Shown here piece after piece: positions 7,408-36,605 of a stretch of 64,000 nt of DNA. Positions within the stretch are counted from its first letter, which is position 1. Each line of letters starts with the position of its first letter. The stretch comes from Nitrospirales bacterium (GTDB lineage Bacteria > Nitrospirota > Nitrospiria > Nitrospirales > UBA8639): positions 768,001-832,000 of the forward strand of contig OY820905.2 in the NCBI GenBank assembly GCA_963555755.3. Reading direction: 5' to 3'. The translations under genes and the position numbers were made by a program. The notes under the pieces were generated by a model, which ran no database searches, was not told where the DNA came from, and saw only the letters and a list, made by a program, of their open reading frames with translations.

Positions 7408-7531
7408 GTAGAGTAGAACACTGGTGCTCACCTGGAGCTACTCTCGAACGCTTCGACGCACGCGTCTACAACGGACCACAGCAGTCAGCAATTCCCAGCG
7501 TCCCCTCATCAATCCGTGCATACAGTTTTCC
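7408..7531 (-). ncRNA. 3' remnant (half of domain V plus domain VI) of group II intron A
   Basis: Near-identical to 28872-28975 joined to 30970-30989; ends ...TTCTACTCTAC on minus strand. Confidence 0.85.
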
Positions 7532-9392
7532 CAAGCCGTTCACTTAATCTGTTGACACAAACCAGCAAACAGACATAAACAGCGCTTGTTTGCTGGCTTT
7601 CTTGTTTTGGATCATGCAGAAAAAATCTTCCGCAACTTCTACGCTGAAGCACCCTCGGATACCGCTCGAGTACGGTGGCTTCCAGATCAACCACTGCAAG
7701 TCTCCGGTCTGCTCGAACTACGGCGTTCCGCCAGAACACACATCGGTGCGTGGAAAAAATAGCTACACTCTGGATTCACGCAACCAAGGCATTTCATCCT
7801 GTATCTGCACGTCCTGCGGCGAAGGATTCCCTCTCAAGAGCAACCTCGGCATCGCAGAAGAAGTCGAGCGCATGTCGGCCTACCTGTCGCCTCGTGAGGT
7901 GGCGTTCTGCCGTAACGATGCCTGTACCAACCATACCGGTCAGGTGCCCGTAGGTACCGCCGGGGCATATGCCTCGTTCGGCAAGACCGCGATTGGCAGC
8001 CCCCGCTGGCGCTGTAGCGTCTGCGGTAAGACGTTCTCACAGAACACCAAGGCCACCGCCCGGCAGCGGGAACATCACAAGAACAAGACCATTTTCAAAC
8101 TGCTGGTCAACAAGCTGCCCGTGCGCCGAATCATCGAAGTCGCCGACATCCACCCCAAGACCTTCTACCACCGCCTCGACTTCCTCCATCGCCAGTGCCA
8201 ATCATTTGCCGCCCACCGCGAGCACGCCCTATCCACCCTCCCCATTCGGCGACTGTCCCTCGGCGTGGACCGGCAGGACTACCTTGTGAACTGGATGGTT
8301 CGCAAGGACAAGCGCAACATTCAGCTATCGGCCATTGCATCAGTGGACAACGAACACGGTTACGGCTTCGGTGTCCACCTTCACTTCGACCCTTCTCTGG
8401 ACAGCGAAGCTGTCCAAGCCGAAGTCGAGAAGAGCGGCGACCTTGGCATGCCCTATCCGCATCGTCGCGTTGCACGTCTGTGGCTCAATGCAGACCATGA
8501 GCGAGCCAGTGCCAAATCCCTACGCACTTCGCGGCGCAAACCCGGACTGCCAACGCAGATCGATGAAGCCTATGCCGCAGCATTGATGCGTGACGATATC
8601 GAAAGCCCCGATGCGCCGTCGCCCGTAGAACGACTTCCTGAATACGGGATGCAAACCCATGGCGAGTACACCATGTCTGGGCATTTTTTCTTCCTCAAAC
8701 GCCTGCTGGGCAATGTCCAAAAGTGGCGCTTCTTTATCGACCAAGACCCTGGACTGCGAGCCGCGTGCCTATCGGCGTTCCACGACGAGATCCGAGGCCG
8801 CACGGCGGAGGCCTTCTCTGTTCGCATCACCAAAGATCTGACGGTGGACGAAACGCGTCAAAAATACAACGAAGCGACGATGCTGTTCGTGCACGCAGAG
8901 CTCGCGCACCCAAAGATGAAGCCGCAGGAGGTCAAGTTGCTGCTGATCAAAGAGCGTCTGGCCTGTATGACGCCGCACGGGAAGTGGCAGGATCGGTGGC
9001 TTGACCATCCTTTCCCGACCATGAGCGAGCCAGAGAAGACAGTGGCCTCCCTCACCAATCTGGGCGACTACGACGAAGACCACAAAGCTTGGCTCTACAA
9101 CAAAGCGAGCGTGCATGGTGTCGATTCGTTCTTCAACCAAGTGCGTCGACGGCTCTCCCTGCTGGAGCGTCCGATCCATTCCAAATCCAACAATGGTCGG
9201 ATATGGAACGGATATTCTCCATATAACCCGGGTAATGTTGCAAAAGTACTCGACATCATGCGCACGGTGCATAACTACATCCTGACCGGCAAGGATGGCA
9301 AGACGCCAGCTGTGCGACTTGGATTGGCCCAAGCGCCGCTGGACTACGAAGCCATTATTTATTTTGCATCAACAGATTAAGTGAACGGCTTG
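7532..9392 (+). mobile_element. Unclassified IS (IS1/IS1595-like architecture) inserted in group II intron domain V
   Basis: Perfect 24-bp TIR CAAGCCGTTCACTTAATCTGTTGA; 9-bp flanks CAGTTTTCC / CAGTTCTCC. Confidence 0.88.
7614..9380 (+). CDS. Putative transposase with Zn-ribbon Cys pairs, HTH and RNase H-like region
   Basis: CKSPVC/CTSC/CRNDAC/CSVC; DRQD, FIDQD, C-terminal GKTPAVRLGLA; ORF fills the TIR-bounded unit and its stop lies in the right TIR. Confidence 0.75.
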   Translation: MQKKSSATSTLKHPRIPLEYGGFQINHCKSPVCSNYGVPPEHTSVRGKNSYTLDSRNQGISSCICTSCGEGFPLKSNLGIAEEVERMSAYLSPREVAFCRNDACTNHTGQVPVGTAGAYASFGKTAIGSPRWRCSVCGKTFSQNTKATARQREHHKNKTIFKLLVNKLPVRRIIEVADIHPKTFYHRLDFLHRQCQSFAAHREHALSTLPIRRLSLGVDRQDYLVNWMVRKDKRNIQLSAIASVDNEHGYGFGVHLHFDPSLDSEAVQAEVEKSGDLGMPYPHRRVARLWLNADHERASAKSLRTSRRKPGLPTQIDEAYAAALMRDDIESPDAPSPVERLPEYGMQTHGEYTMSGHFFFLKRLLGNVQKWRFFIDQDPGLRAACLSAFHDEIRGRTAEAFSVRITKDLTVDETRQKYNEATMLFVHAELAHPKMKPQEVKLLLIKERLACMTPHGKWQDRWLDHPFPTMSEPEKTVASLTNLGDYDEDHKAWLYNKASVHGVDSFFNQVRRRLSLLERPIHSKSNNGRIWNGYSPYNPGNVAKVLDIMRTVHNYILTGKDGKTPAVRLGLAQAPLDYEAIIYFASTD

Positions 9393-26713: not shown

Positions 26714-28823
26714 TTGTTATTCCTTAAATTAATAAATAATCAGGTATCAGCCATCAGCGTTTTGGCTTTGCTTGCTATTGGAACCTTCGCCACCTGCGTT
26801 TATGCGGGCGGCTTCACTGTCAAGAGCGGCGAGACTGTGATGATTACACAGGAACTCGACGGTGATGACAAAGGCGTGGTAGAAAAAGGCGGCGCTATAA
26901 AACCAACCAATAGTGGTGATAATGGCATTAACATAACCGGTAATGATAACACTGCGATCAACAACGGTTCTATCGAGACGGTGGGAGGCGCAGGGCCATG
27001 GTATTCACTTATTCGAATCCGACAACAACACCATCAACAACGACGGTTCTATAGAGACGATGGGTCACAGGGCCTTTGGCATTTACTTAGACGAATCCCT
27101 CAACAATGCCATCAACAACAACGGTTCTATAGAGACGGAGGTACGAGGTGCTTCTGGCATTTACTTAGACAAATCCCTCAACAATACCGTCAACAACAAC
27201 GGTTCTATAGAGACGATGGGAGACTTTGCCTCTGGCATTTCCTTATCCGGTTCCACCACCAATACCATCAACAACAACGGTTCTATAAAGACGGTGGGAA
27301 AAGACTCCTATGGCATTTCCTTATCAGCTTTCACCACTAATACCGTCAACAACAACGGTTCTATAGAGACGATGGGAGAAGGTGCCCATGGCATTTTATT
27401 ATTCGCTTCCGACACCAATAATACCATCAACAACAACGGTTCTATAAAGACGATGGGAGAAGGTGCCCATGGCATTTTCTTATTTTTTTCCGATGCCAAT
27501 ACCATCAATAACGACGGAGATATCTTTGTTACTGGCGTTGACAGCTTTGCTGTTTTGGATGATGGAAACAAGCAGAATAAAAACAATACCCTAAACCTGT
27601 TTTCCCGTTCGCGAATCATTGGCCGAATTGATTTTGGCGATGGAGTAGATACGGTCAATTTCCATTTCAAGAAAGCGGGTTTTTCTTCCACGTTGAGTTT
27701 TGAGAATACGGAGTCTATCAACCTGCATGACGACAATATGGTGAATGTGGGAGGCCTGACAGGAGTTTATTCGGTGGTTGATCCCACCGGTCAGTCAGTG
27801 AACGGAGCTGTTCTTGGTTCGATCACAAAAGATATCCATGGAATCCTGACCCGCCGTACGAGTCGGATGTCGAACACGAATCCCTCGCAACTGGCTTCGA
27901 CCCGTGTGGAACCGGGAATGATGTCCTCTTCCCAAAAATCACAAGTCTGGGCGAGCGGTTTCGGCGCCCACCGTTCACGCGATGAAGATGGCCGTGTTCT
28001 CGCTTATGACCACGTTTATTACGGCGGCGTCGCCGGTTATGAAACGGCAACCCGTCAAGCGAGTATCGGCTTCATGGCGGGCTACGCTCAATCTGATGTA
28101 AGAACAGATTTAACCTCGATCAACACCGATAGCGAAAGTTATTTTGTCGGCGCTTATGGTCAGAAAAGATTCGCGAGCTTCAACCTGGACGCCTCTTTGC
28201 TCGCCGGTTACGAGCGCTATGACAACGACCGTATTGTGGTCGATAACCTGAATAAGTTTGAAACTGCCGAGGCGGCTTATGACTCTTTTTTTCTAAGTCC
28301 GTCAGTCACTTTGAGTAGCGAAATCAGGGTATTCGACAAGATAGCGCTTCGTCCTTCAGTAACCGGGATTTACAGCGTCGCATGGTATGACGATTACACC
28401 GAATCGGGCACAACCCGATCTAACCTGTCCATCGACGACCGATTCTCGCATGCCCTGATCGGAAAACTGCAAATTGCGGCGGCGTATGTGTTCAGCAATG
28501 GCAGCGAAATAGGGATTAGAGGAGGCGGCAGGTATCGCTATACGATCAATGATGATGTTGACACCACATTAGCGGGAACGTCTTTTCGATATGCCGCGGC
28601 CGGAGACGACACTTACTTTGCAGCCATAGCGGGCGCCAATGCGCGCGTTGCGTTAATGGACAGTATCAACCTGACCGCCAATGCGGAATATGCATTCGAC
28701 GATGGCATTGAAACCACCCTGTCAGGCCAACTCGTCCTTGAATTTATTGGCTCTTTAGCAGAATCTTCGGCCTTGAATTTATTGGCTCTTCAGCAGAATC
28801 TGTGGGTGACTTGGTTCAAATAG
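26714..28823 (+). pseudogene. Autotransporter copy 2, +1 frameshift at ~26995
   Basis: Leader in ORF 26714, remainder in ORF 26943; 7 NT(I/V)NNNGSI repeats; barrel near-identical to copy 1. Confidence 0.85.
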
Positions 28824-28975
28824 AATAGAATAGGAATAGGGGTCAAATCTTTGAATTGAAATAGAAATAGGGTAGAGTAGAACACTGGTGCTCACCTGGA
28901 GCTACTCTCGAACGCTTCGACGCACGCGTCTACAACGGACCACAGCAGTCAGCCATTCCCAGCGTCCCCTCATCA

Positions 28976-30969
28976 GTAGGGTCGAGGACTGGCGCGCCAA
29001 CGGTAGGGTTCGGTGGCTCCTCCACCCCTTTCGGAATGGGCCTCAGTCCGACTCCCCTGGTCACGGTTCCAGTCCCCGCCACCTCAAACCCGGCGTGCTG
29101 ATTTCCAGCACCGGGCTTTCCTGGATGCTTCACCTCAAGGGTTATGTGACCTATCAGCCTGGAAGGACTTTCATGCCGACCCGTTGTACCGCACTCGGTA
29201 ATCTCCATATAAGCCAAGTACCGTGTAGAGCCAAACCTTACTCCACCTCTTCCAGCCAAAACCTCGACGGTGGCGCACTCGCATCATGTGCCGCCGGACC
29301 TTCCGCTCCACCCAATCCTTCACGTAGGATAAACACCGACTCGCATGCCCAATCCGGAAGTAGTTCACCCAGCCCCGTACGATCGGATTGATCATGGCGA
29401 TCATCCGTCCCACCGGCTGGGATTGCCCGCGTCGGAACACTTCCTTGAGCTTCCGCAGCAACGCGGTGCGCCGCTTCACCTTCGGTATGTACTGCGGGCG
29501 CCACACTCCACGCCGCGACCGCACACGCCGAAAGTCAAAGCCCAGAAAGCCGAAGCTGCCTCCCTGACTCAGGTCCACGATTCGGCTCTTCTCCTCATTC
29601 ACCTGAAGGTCTAATTGGGCCAACGCCTCTCGCAGCTTCCGCTCCGCAACCTGCGCCAGTTGTGCGTGGCGGCGATAGCCATCCACTAACACGACGAGGT
29701 CATCCGCAAACCGGACATACTCGAGATACGTATACTGGCCCTGCCGGGTTGTCTCCTTCAGCTGCTCCAGCCTCTCATCCACTTCCGTGAGATAGAGGTT
29801 GGCCAGCAGCGGGGAAATCACACCCCCTTGAGGCACCCCACGCGGGCCGGACGCCTTGACGATGAGTTTCACCAGCCGCAGGATCGCGGGATCCTGGATG
29901 CGTCGGGCCACCTTCGCCAGCAGCCGGTCATGCCGCACCGTGTCGAAGAAGGCCGCCAGATCCACATCAATCACTCGCGTCTTGTTCTGCACCATCGCCT
30001 GAGCCACCCGGCCAATCGCCTGGTGGGCTGTCCGTTTCGGTCGATACCCATACGACCCATCACGAAAATCCGCCTCAAAGATCGGTTCCAGCAGGAGCTT
30101 GAGCGCTCCCTGTACCACGCGGTCCCGAATCGCGGGTATCCCTAAGACGCGGACTCGTCCACCGCCTTTCGAAATCTCCACGTGCCGGTTCCGCATCGGT
30201 CGGTAGGTCTGCGTGACCAGTTCGTCCCGTAGTCGTGCAAGAAAGGGCTCCACCCCCGTGGCCTCGATGCCAGCAAACGTCACCCCATCAATGCCGGGGG
30301 CTCCGTTGTTTTTCTTGGCCATCGAATAGGCCGCGCGTAGCGTCGCCTCTTTGCACACGTGGACGTACAGGCCCCACACCCGCCATCGCTTCTCAGCCTT
30401 CGCCTTGACGTAGAGCCGCTGTCGCAGGTCTTGCAGTGTAATGGACGCCGTTGTCATCTCGTCCCTGCCTCCCATGTTGATCACAGCCTACAGCCAGTAG
30501 GGCTCCTTTGCTCCACAGGCATGACCCTGCTTCCTCGCTCCTACGAGCCCCTCCGCCACCCTCTCGTCTTCGGCTCACTTCCCAGAGAGCTGGTTATAGA
30601 GCCGATCTTCCTCCAGGGATTTCTCCCTGGGACGAGGAGGGCTTCTCCAGTTGCGTCGTCTGTCCTTGCTCCCGTGCTGTCGCTCTCACCCCGCCGGAGT
30701 GGCCAGGCGTCTCAGCCTTGGTTCGCCTGTCCATGCCGTCTTCGTCCTACGGACAGGGACTCGACCTCCGAGGTTTCATACTTTCGAGGCTACCTCTGCG
30801 TTCACTTTCGTTACGGCCCGGGAACTCGCTCACCATCCTCTACGATGGCTTTGTCGATGGGCTTCAGCGTCTCGGTTTCTCTCCACGCTGCCATCCAAGC
30901 TACAGGGCTCAGGCTCTTACCCTGGTGGGCTTGCTTCCCACTGAACAGTCTCGCCTTACCTGGACACAC
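28976..30969 (-). mobile_element. Group II intron C, inserted in domain V of intron A
   Basis: 5' GTGTGTCC, 3' ..GACCCTAC; empty site present at 7511/7512; EBS1 GTCCGT (30749-30754) pairs with ACGGAT. Confidence 0.92.
29171..30484 (-). CDS. ltrA: Group II intron RT/maturase of intron C (class E-like)
   Basis: [44 protein letters not shown]; no endonuclease domain. Confidence 0.92.
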   Translation of the reverse strand: MINMGGRDEMTTASITLQDLRQRLYVKAKAEKRWRVWGLYVHVCKEATLRAAYSMAKKNNGAPGIDGVTFAGIEATGVEPFLARLRDELVTQTYRPMRNRHVEISKGGGRVRVLGIPAIRDRVVQGALKLLLEPIFEADFRDGSYGYRPKRTAHQAIGRVAQAMVQNKTRVIDVDLAAFFDTVRHDRLLAKVARRIQDPAILRLVKLIVKASGPRGVPQGGVISPLLANLYLTEVDERLEQLKETTRQGQYTYLEYVRFADDLVVLVDGYRRHAQLAQVAERKLREALAQLDLQVNEEKSRIVDLSQGGSFGFLGFDFRRVRSRRGVWRPQYIPKVKRRTALLRKLKEVFRRGQSQPVGRMIAMINPIVRGWVNYFRIGHASRCLSYVKDWVERKVRRHMMRVRHRRGFGWKRWSKVWLYTVLGLYGDYRVRYNGSA

Positions 30970-31015
30970 ATCCGTGCGTACAGTTTTCCCGTACACGGCT
31001 TTCCGATGTTCTTCG

Positions 31016-34000
31016 TCAGAACGCATGCGCCCGTTTCCAGCCAGCTATCGTGGGAAGCTTGAACAAGCCGTATCGAGCATAGAGCATGGCCGTGGGAAAC
31101 TGCGCATACCCTGCCGCCCGGCTTTTCACCTTGTGCCGTTTGCGGAGGTGCGCGCGCAGTCGCTCTTCCACATGCCATTTCACTCGACCCAAGCCCTTGG
31201 AGCTCTTGCGGTAGTGGAAATAGCCCGCCCACCCGCGCACGTACTGGTTGAGCGTCGCCACCACATCAGGGAGCGGAATCGGGGTCCCACCACGAGCCGT
31301 CATCTGTGTCACTCGTGCTTTCGCCCGCTGGATGGATCGGAGGGACGGCTCCACGTGCGGGTAGACTTTCCCGCTCGTGCGTCCCGTCCGGAGACCAAAG
31401 GAAAACCCGAGAAAGTCAAACCGTTCCTGCCTGGCGTTGACTTCCCTGGTTTTCTCCTCATTGAGGCTCAGCCCCAATCCCTCCAGCAAGTGGTGGAGGA
31501 CCGTCATTGACGGAGCCACCTCCCCCGCACAAAGCACCACCAGTCGAGTCGCCCCGAGGAACCACCCCTCGAGGCGCTCACAGAACCGGACGTGAACGTC
31601 TCCGCTCATCCGGCTCTTCTTATCTAGCCTGTCCATACACCAACCGCCAGTGAGCAAACAGATTGGGCTGCCGACACGCAATGCGTCGCAACCACTGATC
31701 GGCTCGCCGTTTGTGGCCTCGCAGCCGCTTGAACTTGCGAGTGGCCCACAGCACAAGTTTGCGATCGATGTGCCGGAGGGACCGGTACAACGCCGATTGG
31801 TAGAAGGCACTGTAATAGGTCACCCACCCGCGTATCTTCGCATTGAACATCCGCGCCAGATCGTCGAGCGCTTTATCGCTCCGCAGATGGAGCTGCCAGC
31901 TCCGCACGACCTGGCGGATCGCCTTCCCCGCCTTATTACTGATGGCCGGACTGAAGTTGATGAAGTATTTCCCCCACCGGTTCTTCGACCGCCGTGGGCG
32001 AAACGTGTAGCCCAAGAAGTCGAAGGCGGTGATTGGATACCCCAGACGCCGATCGGCATCTTTGCAGTATACAATCTGGGTCTTCTCCGAATGGAGTTCA
32101 AGCCCCCAATCCGCAAAGCGCCGCGCTAACGCCCCTTTCAGATGTTCGGCCTGTTTCCGGGTGCGACAGTGACACACCCCATCGTCGGCATACCGCTCAA
32201 ACGGGATGTGCGGATAGTACCGCCTCATCCACGCATCGAAGACATAATGCAGAAACAGGTTCGCCAGCAACGGACTGACGACACCCCCTTGCGGCGTGCC
32301 TCGGGTCCGCTCCCGCACCGTCCCGTCCAACACTTGCTCCGGAGCTTTCAACCATCGCTCGATATAGAGCAGCACCCACGTAGCTTGGGTATGCCGACGC
32401 ACCATGGCCAGCAGCCGGTCATGGTCGATGGTGTCGAAGAACCCTTTGATGTCAAGGTCCACCACCCAGTCATAGCGCCAACACCGCCTGCGCGCCTGCC
32501 CAATCGCTTGATGCGCTGATTTCCCCGGTCGGTAGCCATAGGAATCCGGGTGAAAGTGGGCTTCCACTTCCGGTTCCAGGGCCTGTTTGACCACTGTTTG
32601 CGCAATCCGGTCTGCCACGGTCGGGATCCCCAACGGACGGCTGCCGCCGCCTGCCTTGGGAATCTCCACCCGCTTGACCGGCAGGGGCCGATAACTCCCA
32701 GAGGCCATCCGGTTCCAGAGCTTATAGAGGTTGTTGTCCAACCTCTGCTCAAAGTCCGCCACCGTCTGGCCATCCACCCCAGCCCCACCCTGATTGGCTT
32801 TCACTCGTTTGTAGGCTTCCCACACCTGACGTTGGGTAATGGGAAATGGCTTGGCCTGAGTCACGAAAGTCCTCCCATCGCTGGTTGCTCTCTTCCCTCA
32901 AGCCCGATAAGGCAACCCCTTCGCTCCAGCTCCATTACAGAACCTTCTTCACTACTACGAGTTGCTCCGCCCCTGTACCCCGCCTCGGTACTCTCACGCT
33001 TGTGGGACCTCCACTTGCGTTTCTCCCTTCGCATCGGGGTGACAGGTTCCCACGTTCTCCACAAGAGCCTGGACCGCCTTCTCGCCGCCTTCATGCCGGA
33101 CGCCATCTGGCCAGTAACCAGGTGCCCGCCAGATTCCTCCCGGAGTAACGATCCCCCCCCGGTTTTGACGTCATCCCTACGCTTTCGACACGTCCTCAGC
33201 GGTTCACTCACGTTCGACTCGACGGTCCATACCTGACAGGGTCTTGCCCTGCCTTTTCCCATTGCGCTCACCACCACCTCTCTTAAAGGCAGCAGCCATG
33301 GGTGGTTTGAAGCCTCCGCCTGTACAGCGACTTCGAGGGGCCTCCCCTCATCTCTTGTGCAGCATGGCTGCACAAAGGACTGACGTCCTTTTGTGCGCCT
33401 TCGTGGCGCACGATCATCGGCATACCGCACGATCTTGGCTCGGAGAGAGCGTCCAACCTCTGGACGGGCCCAGCTCCGATCCACCTCATGCAAGTACACG
33501 TTCGCCAAGAGCGGGGAAATCACGCCGCCCTGGGGTGTACCCTTCCGAGAGCCTTTGCCCCCACTCACGCGCGTCGTTCCGTGTCCAGCTTCCTCAACCA
33601 CTGACACCGTTAGCCATTGCTTGATGAGGCCTAAGACGGCCCCATCCGCAATCCGTTTCGCCACGGTGGCCATCAGTTTGGCATGGGGAATGCTGTCGAA
33701 ATACTGGGACAGGTCGGCATCAAGGACAGAGCCGTACCCCGCGTGCAGCGCTGTGGCCACCGCATCCGCCGCATCATGGGCAGACCGCTGTGGACGAAAC
33801 CCATACGAGGTCTCGCAAAAGTCCGCCTCGAAGATCGGCTCAATGACCAGCTTGACGGCCATCTGCGCCACTCGATCGGTGATGGTCGGAATCCCGAGGG
33901 GCCGGTGACCCCCATCAGGTTTGGGGCGCCACACCCGTCGCACCGCTTGTGCGCGATACCGCTTACTCTTCAGCTCGGCTTGCAGCTTCCTGAGAAATGC

Positions 34001-34216
34001 TTCTCTCCCTTCTTCCGCGTCGATGGCCTCCCACGTGCGCCCGTCTATTCCAGGTGCCCCGTGGTGGGACCGGACCAAGGCATAGGCATGACTCAGAATG
34101 TCCGCCTGGGTGACCTTGTCGTACAACGCATAGAAGCGAAAGCCAGATTCAGACTTGGTCTTCCGATACAGCTTCCTCTGTAGTGTCCTGATCGTACTTG
34201 GGGTTGATAGCGCCAT
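31016..34216 (-). CDS. ltrA: Group II intron RT/maturase of intron A, split by intron B (33412-34216 + 31016-31542)
   Basis: Joined exons are in frame (1332 nt) and read ..[23 protein letters not shown]. Confidence 0.9.
31543..33411 (-). mobile_element. Group II intron B, inserted right after the YADD codons of intron A RT
   Basis: 5' GTGCGCC, 3' ..GACTCGAC; domain V GAGCCGGATGAGCGGAGACGTTCACGTCCGGTTC; EBS1 GATCGTT (33147-33153) pairs with GATGATC. Confidence 0.93.
31620..32864 (-). CDS. ltrA: Group II intron RT/maturase of intron B (class D-like)
   Basis: [41 protein letters not shown]. Confidence 0.93.
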
Positions 34217-34731
34217 GGCAATCCCCGGATCCTCCACTCGTCGAAAGCGTGAACAAAGTAGGGTCCCTTCCCTCGGACCGGGTTATGTTGTCCCAGGCCC
34301 TCTAACGGTACTATGAACCCCTCCGACTCCCACGACGGCCCTCAGCGATTTCGGTCTCCCTTATACGCCTTGGTTGCGGGTTCTGCGCCCGCACCGTCGT
34401 GGGTCTCCCGTCCTGCACGGTGTCTCTTCCGCCACATGCCGCCCCTGCTACCCCGGAAGATCCTGAGGGTGGGTGTTCGTTCTACTCCCTCAGACAGCGG
34501 CCTTCCCCTTCTGACCACAGGGTCGGCATCTCCAAATACGTCACGAGGCGACGTCTAGGTTCGCTTGCGCTACGGCCTGCAGCTTTGCCCATGGGAAACT
34601 TCAACCCCTGATTACTCAGACGCTGCTTCCCGGTACTAGAAAGGTGTACGAACAACTCCTTTCGCGGGACTTTAACCCGCTAGACACACCGCCGATGACG
34701 GCATGCGGTCAAATCTTTGGTTGACTAATTA

Positions 34732-36605
34732 GGGCTTGCTGATAAAAGCTCACCCCATTGATTTGAGTAGCCTTCTGCATGTAAGAACAGGGGGAGACGT
34801 GCACAGAAAGTTCCCCCCTCTTCCCTAAAAGCTTGCACCAGGAGAACCCATCTATCGGACACCTCATGTGAATCAACTGGCCTTTGAAGAGTTCGTCTTG
34901 CCCTTTGGCGGCAAACTCCGCAGTGCCAACCGGTGGGTGATGCTCGCGAAGCACATTCCCTGGGCCGAAGTCGAAACAGCGTACGCGCAGCAGTTTTCCC
35001 CAGACGACATCGGGTCTCCCGCCAAGTCCTCGCGGCTCGCGTTGGGGGCCCTCATCTTACAAGCGCGCCTGGGAGTCACGGATCGTGAACTCGTGGCACA
35101 GATTGCCGAGAACCCCTCTCTGCAATATTTTTTGGGTCTCATGGCGTATCAAGCAGAGGCGCCGTTTCATCATTCTCTGTTGACCACCTTCCGTACACGG
35201 TTTCCTGACGAGAGCCTTGAGAAGATCAACGAAGCCATCGCGCGGCGGATGGCTGACGCCCAGCCAACGAGCGATGAACCAAGAGAAGCGAAAGGAGAAG
35301 GCGAGGCCGCTCCTCCGAAAGGCCAGCTCCTCATTGATGCCACCTGTGTGCCCGCCGATATCAAATATCCCACCGACCTGCACCTCCTGCATGACGCCCG
35401 CGAGAAAACCGAAGAGCTCATCGATCACCTGCCTGCCGCTCGGACCACGGCCCAGAAGAAGCCTCGCACCTATCGGCAGAACGCCCGACAGGATTATTTG
35501 CGCATCGCAAAGAGCAAAAAGCCGAAGAGCCAGAAACTCCGACGAGGGATTGGCAAACAGCTCCGGTTTCTCCGGCGCAAGCTTAGCGCAATGGCCGGCA
35601 TGGCCCAAGACGGATTACTTGTCACCTTACCCAAGACACGCGACCGCCAGCTGCTCGTCATTCAAGAACTGTATCGGCCACAGCGCTGGATGTACACGCA
35701 GCGCTGTCATCGTATCGCCGATCGGTTGGTCAGCCTCCGCCAGCCGCATGTCCGTCCCATCGTGCGTGGCAAAGCCGGGTGCCCGGTCGAATGTGGCGCC
35801 AAAATCTCGGTCAGTCTGGTGGCGGGGGTCAGTTTTGTGGATCGCATCCGGTGGGATGCCTACAACGAATCCCTGGATTTCGTGGGACAGCTCGAAGCCT
35901 ATCGTCGACGGTTTGGCCATGATCCGGCTTCGGTGCACGTGGACCAAATCTACCGCACCCGTGCCAATCGTCAGTTTTGCCACAGCCAAGGCATTCGCCT
36001 GTCGGGACCACCCTTGGGCCATCCCCGGGTGATGAATGAGTCCACCGCCGAGCAGGTGAAGCAAGACCAGCAACAAGGCCGAGACGATGCCACGGCCCGG
36101 ATGGCCATTGAACCTAGAAACGGCAGTTGGGCGCAAAAAAGCCGTGTAAGATATTGGTGTGCATGGTGAAATACAAAAAGTCGTAGTCACCTCGGTGGTG
36201 ATAAGACATTTTTGTATTTTATCAGGTGCGCCAAGAGCTTGCGCGGACTTTTGTGATCCAATTGCTGTTTCTAGGTTGAAGGCAAGTTTGGGCAAGGCAA
36301 ACGGCGGTTTGGGTTAGGACGCATGATGGCCAAGCTTGCCATCACCTCCGAAGCGATGAGTCAGATCTCGTTTCTGGTGATGAACTTGGAGCACCTCCTC
36401 CTCCGAGTCGGGTCTTGTTTGTGTTGGGCTTGCTGCCCGAGCTGGAAGAGTACGGAGAAAGACCTTCTGGGGGCCAGCTGGCTCAAGCTGAAGCCGGATT
36501 GTCGGGCTCGTAGTGGTAGCAGAGTTGAAGCCCGGTGGGTCTGGAGTCCGCAATTGATTGCGGCTTGGTGAGGGGATATTTGAAAAGGCTTTTTTCAGCA
36601 ACCCC
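34732..36605 (+). mobile_element. IS5-family element; transposase 34868-36571 interrupted by a MITE
   Basis: TIR GGG(C/G)TTGCTGA(T/A)AAAAGC; TAATTA on both flanks; IDATCVPADI; removing the MITE restores IEGKFGQGKRRFGL in frame. Confidence 0.88.
36113..36275. mobile_element. MITE-1 (163 bp)
   Basis: TIR CCTAGAAAC(G/A)GCA; 5-bp TSD TTGAA; further copies at 44392 and 51230. Confidence 0.88.

Follow-up and report, generated by a model that had tools for sequence, protein, structure and literature searches.

The stretch of DNA analysed here (the window, 64,000 nucleotides) comes from a Nitrospirales bacterium and corresponds to positions 768001–832000 of contig C1 (genome G000), a single 4.6-Mb contig with a completeness of 99.4%. 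On its minus strand, between 28872 and 34706, three unrelated group II introns lie in one nest. The outer intron, A, starts with GCATG at 34706, ends with CTCTAC at 28872 and holds two inner introns. Intron B (1869 nt, GTGCG...CGAC) is placed one base past the YADD codons of A's reverse transcriptase (RT), and intron C (1994 nt, GTGTG...CCTAC) directly before the last nucleotide of A's domain V (DV). The features are collected in Table 1; positions elsewhere in the genome are given with the prefix C1.

The nest is real, precise and recent. Its boundaries are fixed by empty alleles elsewhere in the genome, which confirm the junctions of all three introns as they had been placed in the original prediction. 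Three full-length copies of A are present: one without B and C (C1:230290-228319, with an RT 96.8% identical to that of A), one with C (the allele C1:240690-244655, 99% identical, lacks B only) and one with both. In the doubly empty allele, DV and domain VI (DVI) are intact and match RF00029 with 42.8 bits (cut-off 40), and DNA contigs were found with the joint 31542/33412, which skips the 1869 nt of B. The sense orientation and the open RT frames were also correctly described: 443 amino acids (aa) with a YADDL motif for A, once B is excised in script, 414 aa for B and 428 aa for C, the last two passing TIGR04416. The three RTs share only 33–39% pairwise identity. Rfam matches to domains D1–D4 were obtained for A, B and C alike, and RF00029 (DV/DVI) is matched by B and by the uninterrupted A allele. 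The DV-DVI of C scores below the RF00029 cut-off in the window and above it in two of the five other genome copies scanned, and it folds as DV-DVI. The termini of B and C have the form GUGYG...AY; A starts with GCAUG and ends with AC.

It is very improbable that the nest is a misjoining of three repeats. A, B and C are all multi-copy, short-read contigs break at the junctions, and no single read or contig was seen across the whole nest, but the junctions are base-exact at GUGYG...AC ends, the exon-binding sites (EBSs) match the flanks, the same insertion sites recur in other genomes, and the assembly is the nearly complete single contig described above.

Table 1. Features of the intron nest and of its surroundings in the window (ORF, open reading frame).
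Feature	Position	Strand	Evidence
A, 5' part: domains I–III and start of RT ORF, GCATG end	33412..34706	-	RF02005 at 34441-34673
Putative EBS1 of A, GGTCAGA	34510..34516	-	read by homology to C's EBS1 hairpin
A RT ORF, 5' piece, up to YADD plus one base	33412..34216	-	TIGR04416 positions 2–215
Intron B, class D, at YADD+1	31543..33411	-	RF01999, RF00029, empty alleles, B-less joint
EBS2 of B, GCGTA, pairs with TATGC (Y and A codons)	33178..33182	-	5/5 pairs; covaries in relatives
EBS1 of B, GATCGTT, pairs with GATGATC (D and D codons plus one base)	33147..33153	-	7/7 pairs; 56 relatives average 6.4 of 7
B RT/maturase, 414 aa, no endonuclease domain seen	31620..32864	-	TIGR04416, 443.6 bits
A, middle part: 3' piece of RT (stop at 31016) and 32/33 nt of DV (31001-30970)	30970..31542	-	TIGR04416 positions 229–353; fold
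Intron C, class F/g2-like	28976..30969	-	RF02003 at 30806-30943; 14 5' ends genome-wide
EBS2 of C, GTAT, pairs with exon -9 to -12 (upper 3' strand of DV)	30778..30781	-	unbiased covariation, 49 loci
EBS1 of C, GTCCGTA, pairs with exon -1 to -7 (6/7 here)	30748..30754	-	covariation
EBS3 of C, A, pairs with +1 T (last DV base)	30686	-	observed pairing 0.93, expected 0.69
C RT/maturase, 428 aa, FADD motif	29171..30457	-	TIGR04416, 356.9 bits; 49% to B.th.I3 of pBMB67
C's own DV, 3' strand CGGGTT mismatching C's EBS1	29086..29118	-	sequence pairing
A, 3' part: last DV base and DVI, CTCTAC end	28872..28975	-	14 such 3' ends genome-wide; RF00029 on uninterrupted allele
A's 3' flank with empty copy of target repeat AAAGATTTGACCCC	28839..28871	-	61 genome copies against 0.03 expected (base composition)
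Autotransporter gene, antisense to nest, stop 49 bases from A's 3' end	26943..28823	+	PF03797
IS5-family element, start 24 bases outside A's 5' end	34730..36169	+	NF033578 above cut-off; other genome copies
C-free A fragment, 3' half of DV and DVI only	7408..7531	-	sequence comparison
Insertion sequence in DV, 28-bp terminal inverted repeats, 596-aa ORF	7532..9392	+	no Pfam family; weak IS1/IS1595 zinc-finger matches below cut-off

Judged by its RT and its insertion site, B is a class D intron and belongs to the YADD-homing kind that has already been published. Its RT is 58.9% identical to the class D member D152 (support 100), which itself sits at YADD+1, and 69.5% identical to an intron RT from a Shigella plasmid. 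Both guide sequences that had been proposed for B hold and are backed by covariation (Table 1). A pattern search found 30 RT catalytic sites in the genome. B occupies three of them, each in a different RT gene and each time at YADD+1; the RTs of the three B copies are 100% identical. Of 80 related metagenome loci, 24 were left out for want of a usable 5' flank; among the remaining 56, the site is [YF]ADD+1 in 39, including all 13 with at least 70% identity, as judged from ten codons and from the 5' junctions alone (the 3'-end pattern matched none). Another set of relatives, with changed EBSs, is found at a K[YF]xDH coding motif, which we take to be that of IS66 transposases. Most relatives carry AGTCGTT as EBS1, unlike the GATCGTT of B, which is fitted to A's site.

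That introns home into RT ORFs was correctly regarded as known, since it is published for the very target of B: such homing is described for M.a.I5, UA.I3, P.l.I2 and the B.th.I3 of B. thuringiensis ATCC 35646 (PMC2504315). When likened to these four by their descriptions, B shares the RYADD codons plus one base as intron-binding sites IBS2/IBS1 (PMC2504315; PMC3552965 Table S1), a length of about 1.8–1.9 kb, the lack of an endonuclease domain and the formation of twintrons.

Intron C is directed at the ribozyme. Fourteen of its 5' ends were found in the genome: 11 at one DV position of other introns, two head-to-tail and one at a non-intron site (C1:1562261), so that DV is occupied at 11 of the 12 non-tandem sites. 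In one ORF-less A (C1:2165998-2160017), three C copies stand head-to-tail; they do not represent a simple duplication because they differ at 14–16 positions. Tandem entry at an occupied site has been demonstrated for EcKTE56.groEL (PMC12584367).

The way in which C recognizes its target was studied by a covariation scan in which each column of domain I was compared with each flank position; it covered 49 loci, after the removal of seven same-genome near-duplicates. The ten strongest signals were all EBS1 or EBS2 pairs, and EBS3 came thirteenth. The EBS1 loop GTCCGT (30754-30749) of the original prediction is thereby backed by covariation; EBS2 had been missed there. When the EBS1 of 56 relatives, with 28 distinct sequences, was compared with each relative's own flank, 5.70 of 6 bases paired, against 3.37 after shuffling and 3.91 for the best of 2000 shuffles. 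Of the 12 EBS1/2/3 pairs, 11 are formed in the window, and all of them involve the 3' strand of A's DV. Target recognition is of the IIB type, with EBS1, EBS2 and EBS3 all recovered; for this reason, IIC-type recognition, in which a hairpin takes the place of IBS2, is excluded. The canonical G-U pair of the triad is replaced in A's DV by G opposite A at position 30971 of the window (ACGGAT; other copies read ACGGTT), and the C EBS1 variants GTCCGT and GACCGT match the ACGGAT and ACGGTT forms of DV.

A hairpin as a necessary feature of the C target was considered and rejected, in view of EBS2 and of the one non-hairpin site. C also sits in two DVs that have lost their 5' half to the insertion sequence, and either element may have come first there. 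Equally, EBS pairing is not sufficient for site choice, as equally pairing non-DV sites are empty. All 12 non-tandem sites, including the non-DV one, carry GAAA or GAGA at -19 to -16, which is the DV loop, and this stretch is probably read by the protein and likely adds to the specificity of C. The family may spare itself. Its own DV pairs with EBS1 at 3.5 of 6 bases, against 5.6 for the host DV, and is the poorer partner in 21 of 23 loci, several of which come from the same genomes. None of the genome's C copies sits in the DV of a C, and two relatives (L028 and L163) lie in DVs of related introns.

Genome assemblies yielded 80 relatives of C; 57 retained the 5' end with 34 bases of flank, and 23 were left out. 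DV sites were called by pattern in 26 cases, and L024 and L054 (DV) as well as L002 (a relic) were added by eye; a looser DV pattern over-called and was not used. Thus, 29 of 57 relatives occupy the same DV position (28 intact DVs, one relic), in 22 of 47 genomes from eight named phyla and one unassigned. The closest relative (93%) is in a Nitrospirales assembly, and the same site is used on plasmids of Bradyrhizobium japonicum and Cupriavidus necator. A Bacillus thuringiensis copy of the C type lies at a different site, and a Megaera copy lacks its 5' end. The other 28 of 57 relatives are at non-DV sites, so the family as a whole is not bound to DV. These sites include, in L016 and L022, the 5' end of another intron's domain I and, in L066 and L067, a coding motif, presumably that of IS630 transposases. 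With regard to the earlier proposal that both inner introns specialize on conserved motifs, to be judged by tabulating the sites of their homologues, B relatives lie mostly at [YF]ADD+1 (39/56) and the part concerning C stands for 29/57, but about half of the C relatives are elsewhere. Two groups deserve mention. In L012, L015, L016 and L022, EBS1 is changed and the insertion lies within domain I of another intron or at its border, which makes domain I a second site of intron-directed insertion. L052 and L077 lie 14–15 bases behind the GGGGTCA motif of A's target repeat, on the other strand.

An FADD motif is present in the RT of C and in 62 of its 80 relatives; in RT5, it is given as the mark of class F group g2 (PMC3552965). 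In a quick tree, with 14 of the 80 relatives left out and class labels resting on four anchors, C falls into one clade with B.th.I3 of pBMB67 (SH-aLRT 98, with a long branch and this intron as the sole g2 anchor). DV sites occur on most deep branches, with at least nine site changes on 51 labelled rows, a distribution that fits an old DV preference with repeated retargeting and does not prove it. As described in PMC3552965, the g2 members Mx.xa.I1, W.e.I5, Ma.sp.I2, Sg.ce.I1 and B.th.I3 of pBMB67 share with C the FADD motif, a length of about 2.0 kb and an RT with domain X only. Unlike C, none of the g2 loci in Table S2 of that paper is given as another intron's DV; they are listed as non-coding, transposase or hypothetical gene. 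The hosts of C belong to several intron classes and are often relics. In other genomes, the flank upstream of C was without an RT in 21 of 25 DV hosts; therefore, C frequently survives its host or makes do with hosts that have no ORF.

Taken together, B and C likely entered A independently, by motif-directed EBS-IBS homing and with no regulated cascade, a reading to which we assign a probability of about 0.8 from the sequence comparisons. The C of the window differs at one position from C copies whose hosts differ from A at 39–40 of the first 560 nt, and two host pairs that are identical over these 560 nt carry C copies 15 and 16 positions apart. C and host variants do not co-segregate, which speaks for an independent entry of C. 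In the proposed course of events, A occupies a dispersed intergenic repeat, and B and C would have entered it by ordinary retrohoming guided by EBS-IBS pairing, each landing on a sequence common to most group II introns. B would read the YADD codons through EBS1 and EBS2, and C would read the 3' strand of DV by EBS1/2/3 and land before the last DV base. Other introns may serve as harmless, renewable landing sites on which both lineages persist as intron parasites.

Several points weigh against this reading. All seven ORF-less A copies carry C, as a composite element would also give, and gene conversion can blur the comparison of C and host copies. The RNA contigs gave no example of spliced B, C or A, and the classes were assigned with four anchors on a tree with long branches. 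In addition, 51 genome sites pair with C as well as that of the window, of which six of seven DVs and none of the 44 others are filled; as pairing alone fails to explain the choice, a distal determinant or selection must be invoked.

The first of these points bears on the possibility that A[C] splices and moves as a unit (a "zombie" twintron), with a folded C tolerated between DV and DVI and the RT of C or of A acting on the whole. The seven ORF-less copies occupy separate TGACC|CC sites, little of A's DV hairpin is missing 5' of C, RNA contigs run unspliced across both C junctions, and splicing of that sort is described for plant mitochondrial twintrons (PMC7049729). Nevertheless, joint spread is unlikely in view of the missing co-segregation. 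C has retained an intact EBS1/2/3, DV, DVI and ORF; its copies include one at a non-intron site, tandem ones and some in unrelated hosts, and the unspliced RNA contigs may be DNA or precursor. The last point could reflect survivor bias, in which C inserts wherever its EBSs pair and insertions outside introns are lost to selection. This would agree with the 44 empty sites in a genome that, being bacterial, is mostly coding, with the single non-DV insertion and with the many relatives that lie elsewhere. We consider it comparably improbable: across phyla, EBS1 and EBS2 change with the DV 3' strand at the level of single bases, the GAAA/GAGA stretch precedes even the non-DV site, and the relatives at other sites have an EBS1 changed to match.

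It had been proposed that C splits the catalytic centre of A. The position in DV stands, but the catalytic centre is not cut through: 32 of the 33 nt of DV, including the AGC triad, the loop and the bulge, stay 5' of C, and the predicted hairpin energy is -12.5 kcal/mol with or without the last base. What C displaces, by 2 kb, is DVI and the 3' splice site. Since EBS1 and EBS2 need a strand that is held in this hairpin, the splicing of C and the folding of A's DV are predicted to compete; the predicted duplexes amount to -7.4 kcal/mol for EBS1 and -2.5 kcal/mol for EBS2. C splicing would have to unzip the DV hairpin and would then be mutually exclusive with folding of the core of A. A is likely disabled unless C is spliced out, and for its RT it would need either the removal of B or a sister copy; a maturase made by B-free copies of A could act in trans. 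The implied order is C before A, with B independent of C, as a by-product rather than a function for the host. Because B and C are neighbours within A, neither is dependent on the other's removal.

In the original prediction, these needs were extended to an ordered splicing cascade. The anatomy implies that A is autonomous only once B and C are removed, but a cascade as a function is unsupported. RNA was available from metatranscriptome runs X8 and X10 as assembled contigs, which drop rare forms. The spliced junctions that had been named (33412/31542, 30970/28975 and 34707/28871) were not recovered from these contigs as products of splicing. A B-less joint is present in X8 and X10; its reading as splicing was rejected for X8, where 29 of 29 differences are those of the B-free paralog C1:230290, and the X10 piece is too short to be assigned to an allele. 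No C-less or A-less joint was found in the contigs of either run, which drop rare forms, for the window or for an ORF-less A[C] locus, and the contigs cross the C junctions unspliced. They neither show nor exclude splicing; the cascade is demanded by logic, and the contigs gave no sign that it is used. That the nest is kept as a device in which ordered removal of B and C gates the splicing and mobility of A is quite unlikely, more so than joint spread. The three ORFs are open, the inner insertions are all precise and sense-oriented, and sequential splicing of a bacterial twintron has been shown in Trichodesmium (PMC4649490). Nevertheless, both inner introns occur in just one of the three full-length A copies, and copies of B and C are near-identical across loci, so that the nest is recent and open frames are expected. 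There is no host gene, promoter-like sites number two at the locus against 2.2 by chance, and no second intact triple was found in this genome. A candidate for the latter (C1:5142-11267) was rejected, as its middle is replaced by IS256. Halves of C beside IS256 copies at this place and, far from it, at C1:1251094-1250583 suggest rearrangement between IS256 elements.

A lies in a dispersed repeat. Twelve A-type 5' ends are found in the genome, all after TGACC and at distinct sites, and 14 A-type 3' ends, all before CC; seven of the A copies are ORF-less. The repeat AAAGATTTGACCCC was counted as exact 14-mers (Table 1). The putative EBS1 of A would form 7/7 pairs, one of them G-U, with the 5' flank TTTGACC. 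The RT of A is closest to that of Ni.ha.I1 (46.9% identity; class F g3; support 89, flagged for the meeting of long branches), and the 5' end of the family was present in 1 of 40 related genomes. The A family and a 72% relative, A2, share the TGACC|CC of the repeat (28839-28871, 34707-34720 and genome-wide), and their 5' ends are non-canonical (GCATG in A, GTTCG in A2). A is intergenic, between the antisense autotransporter gene and the IS5 element, and no host gene requires its splicing. The window also contains duplicated blocks (5557-7511/27026-28975, 91%, and 511-3525/23982-26999, 98.5%) with paralogous autotransporter genes and IS1634 elements, an A 3' end following both autotransporter copies, and an ORF-less group II intron (RF02001, RF01998, RF00029; 55938-56597, minus strand) beside a dispersed repeat.

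The second A 3' end, at 7511, had been taken for a C-free allele. This could not be upheld, as only the 3' half of DV and DVI are present there, and the 5' half is replaced by an insertion sequence (7532-9392), beyond which the DV half belongs to another intron family. The element has inverted repeats starting with CAAGCC and a 9-bp target duplication. Other copies are at C1:1024326-1026938, 1251116-1252974 and 3058591-3060449, and all four are at the DV loop, in both orientations and in at least two intron families. Among its relatives with 35–50% identity, no DV was found in 12 of 12 loci.

Nested group II introns have been described before. In Methanosarcina acetivorans, up to five are nested with no coding flanks and with host genes unaffected (PMC4424553). 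The present locus is alike in the repeated homing into other group II introns and in the lack of coding flanks, and unlike that report in that three classes meet and that one inner intron, C, targets the ribozyme and not an ORF. The Euglena gracilis psbF twintron has a group II intron inside DV of another (PMC8393795), and B.t.I4 is listed in "RNA domain 6 of B.t.I3" (PMC3552965 Table S1). As described, these are single cases, whereas C is a lineage with one fixed DV position, many phyla and matching EBSs. In the twintrons TeI3/TeI4 of Thermosynechococcus and Tr.e.I7/I8 of Trichodesmium, as here, the inner copies are near-identical and the outer ones differ (PMC2882425, PMC4649490), a pattern read in Thermosynechococcus as recent independent insertions (PMC2882425). 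The inner intron splices first where this was tested (PMC2882425, PMC4649490). The sites reported for these cyanobacterial twintrons are the ORF start and domain I, in contrast to YADD+1 and the DV end in A, and the Trichodesmium twintron interrupts a gene (PMC4649490), which this nest does not. The literature searched yielded no account of homing into DV as the property of a lineage, and the claim of absence is weak.

The triple nest by itself adds little beyond Methanosarcina, and YADD homing and deep nests are already published; DV homing as a lineage trait is, as far as this limited search can suggest, apparently undescribed. What is added here is the three-part EBS evidence, the count of self-avoidance, the test of composite spread and the DV-sitting insertion sequence. 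Among the motifs of group II introns, DV is the most conserved at the RNA level and YADD at the protein level. A DV-aimed lineage is able to enter introns of whatever class, a point relevant to the question of why bacterial introns are few and mostly broken. Annotation pipelines are reported to miss nested introns (PMC8919778, PMC4028801). With empty, single and double alleles in one genome, the splicing order, the unzipping of DV and self-avoidance are directly testable. Tentatively, and with somewhat less than even confidence, C may represent a widespread, undescribed lineage of ribozyme-core parasites that would read the host DV twice, by EBS1-3 on the 3' strand and by the protein on the loop, and would be spared from itself by its own diverged DV. 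Its splicing would unzip the host hairpin and act as a built-in switch, and introns would form a niche for at least three specialized invaders (B, C and the insertion sequence) that may limit intron spread.

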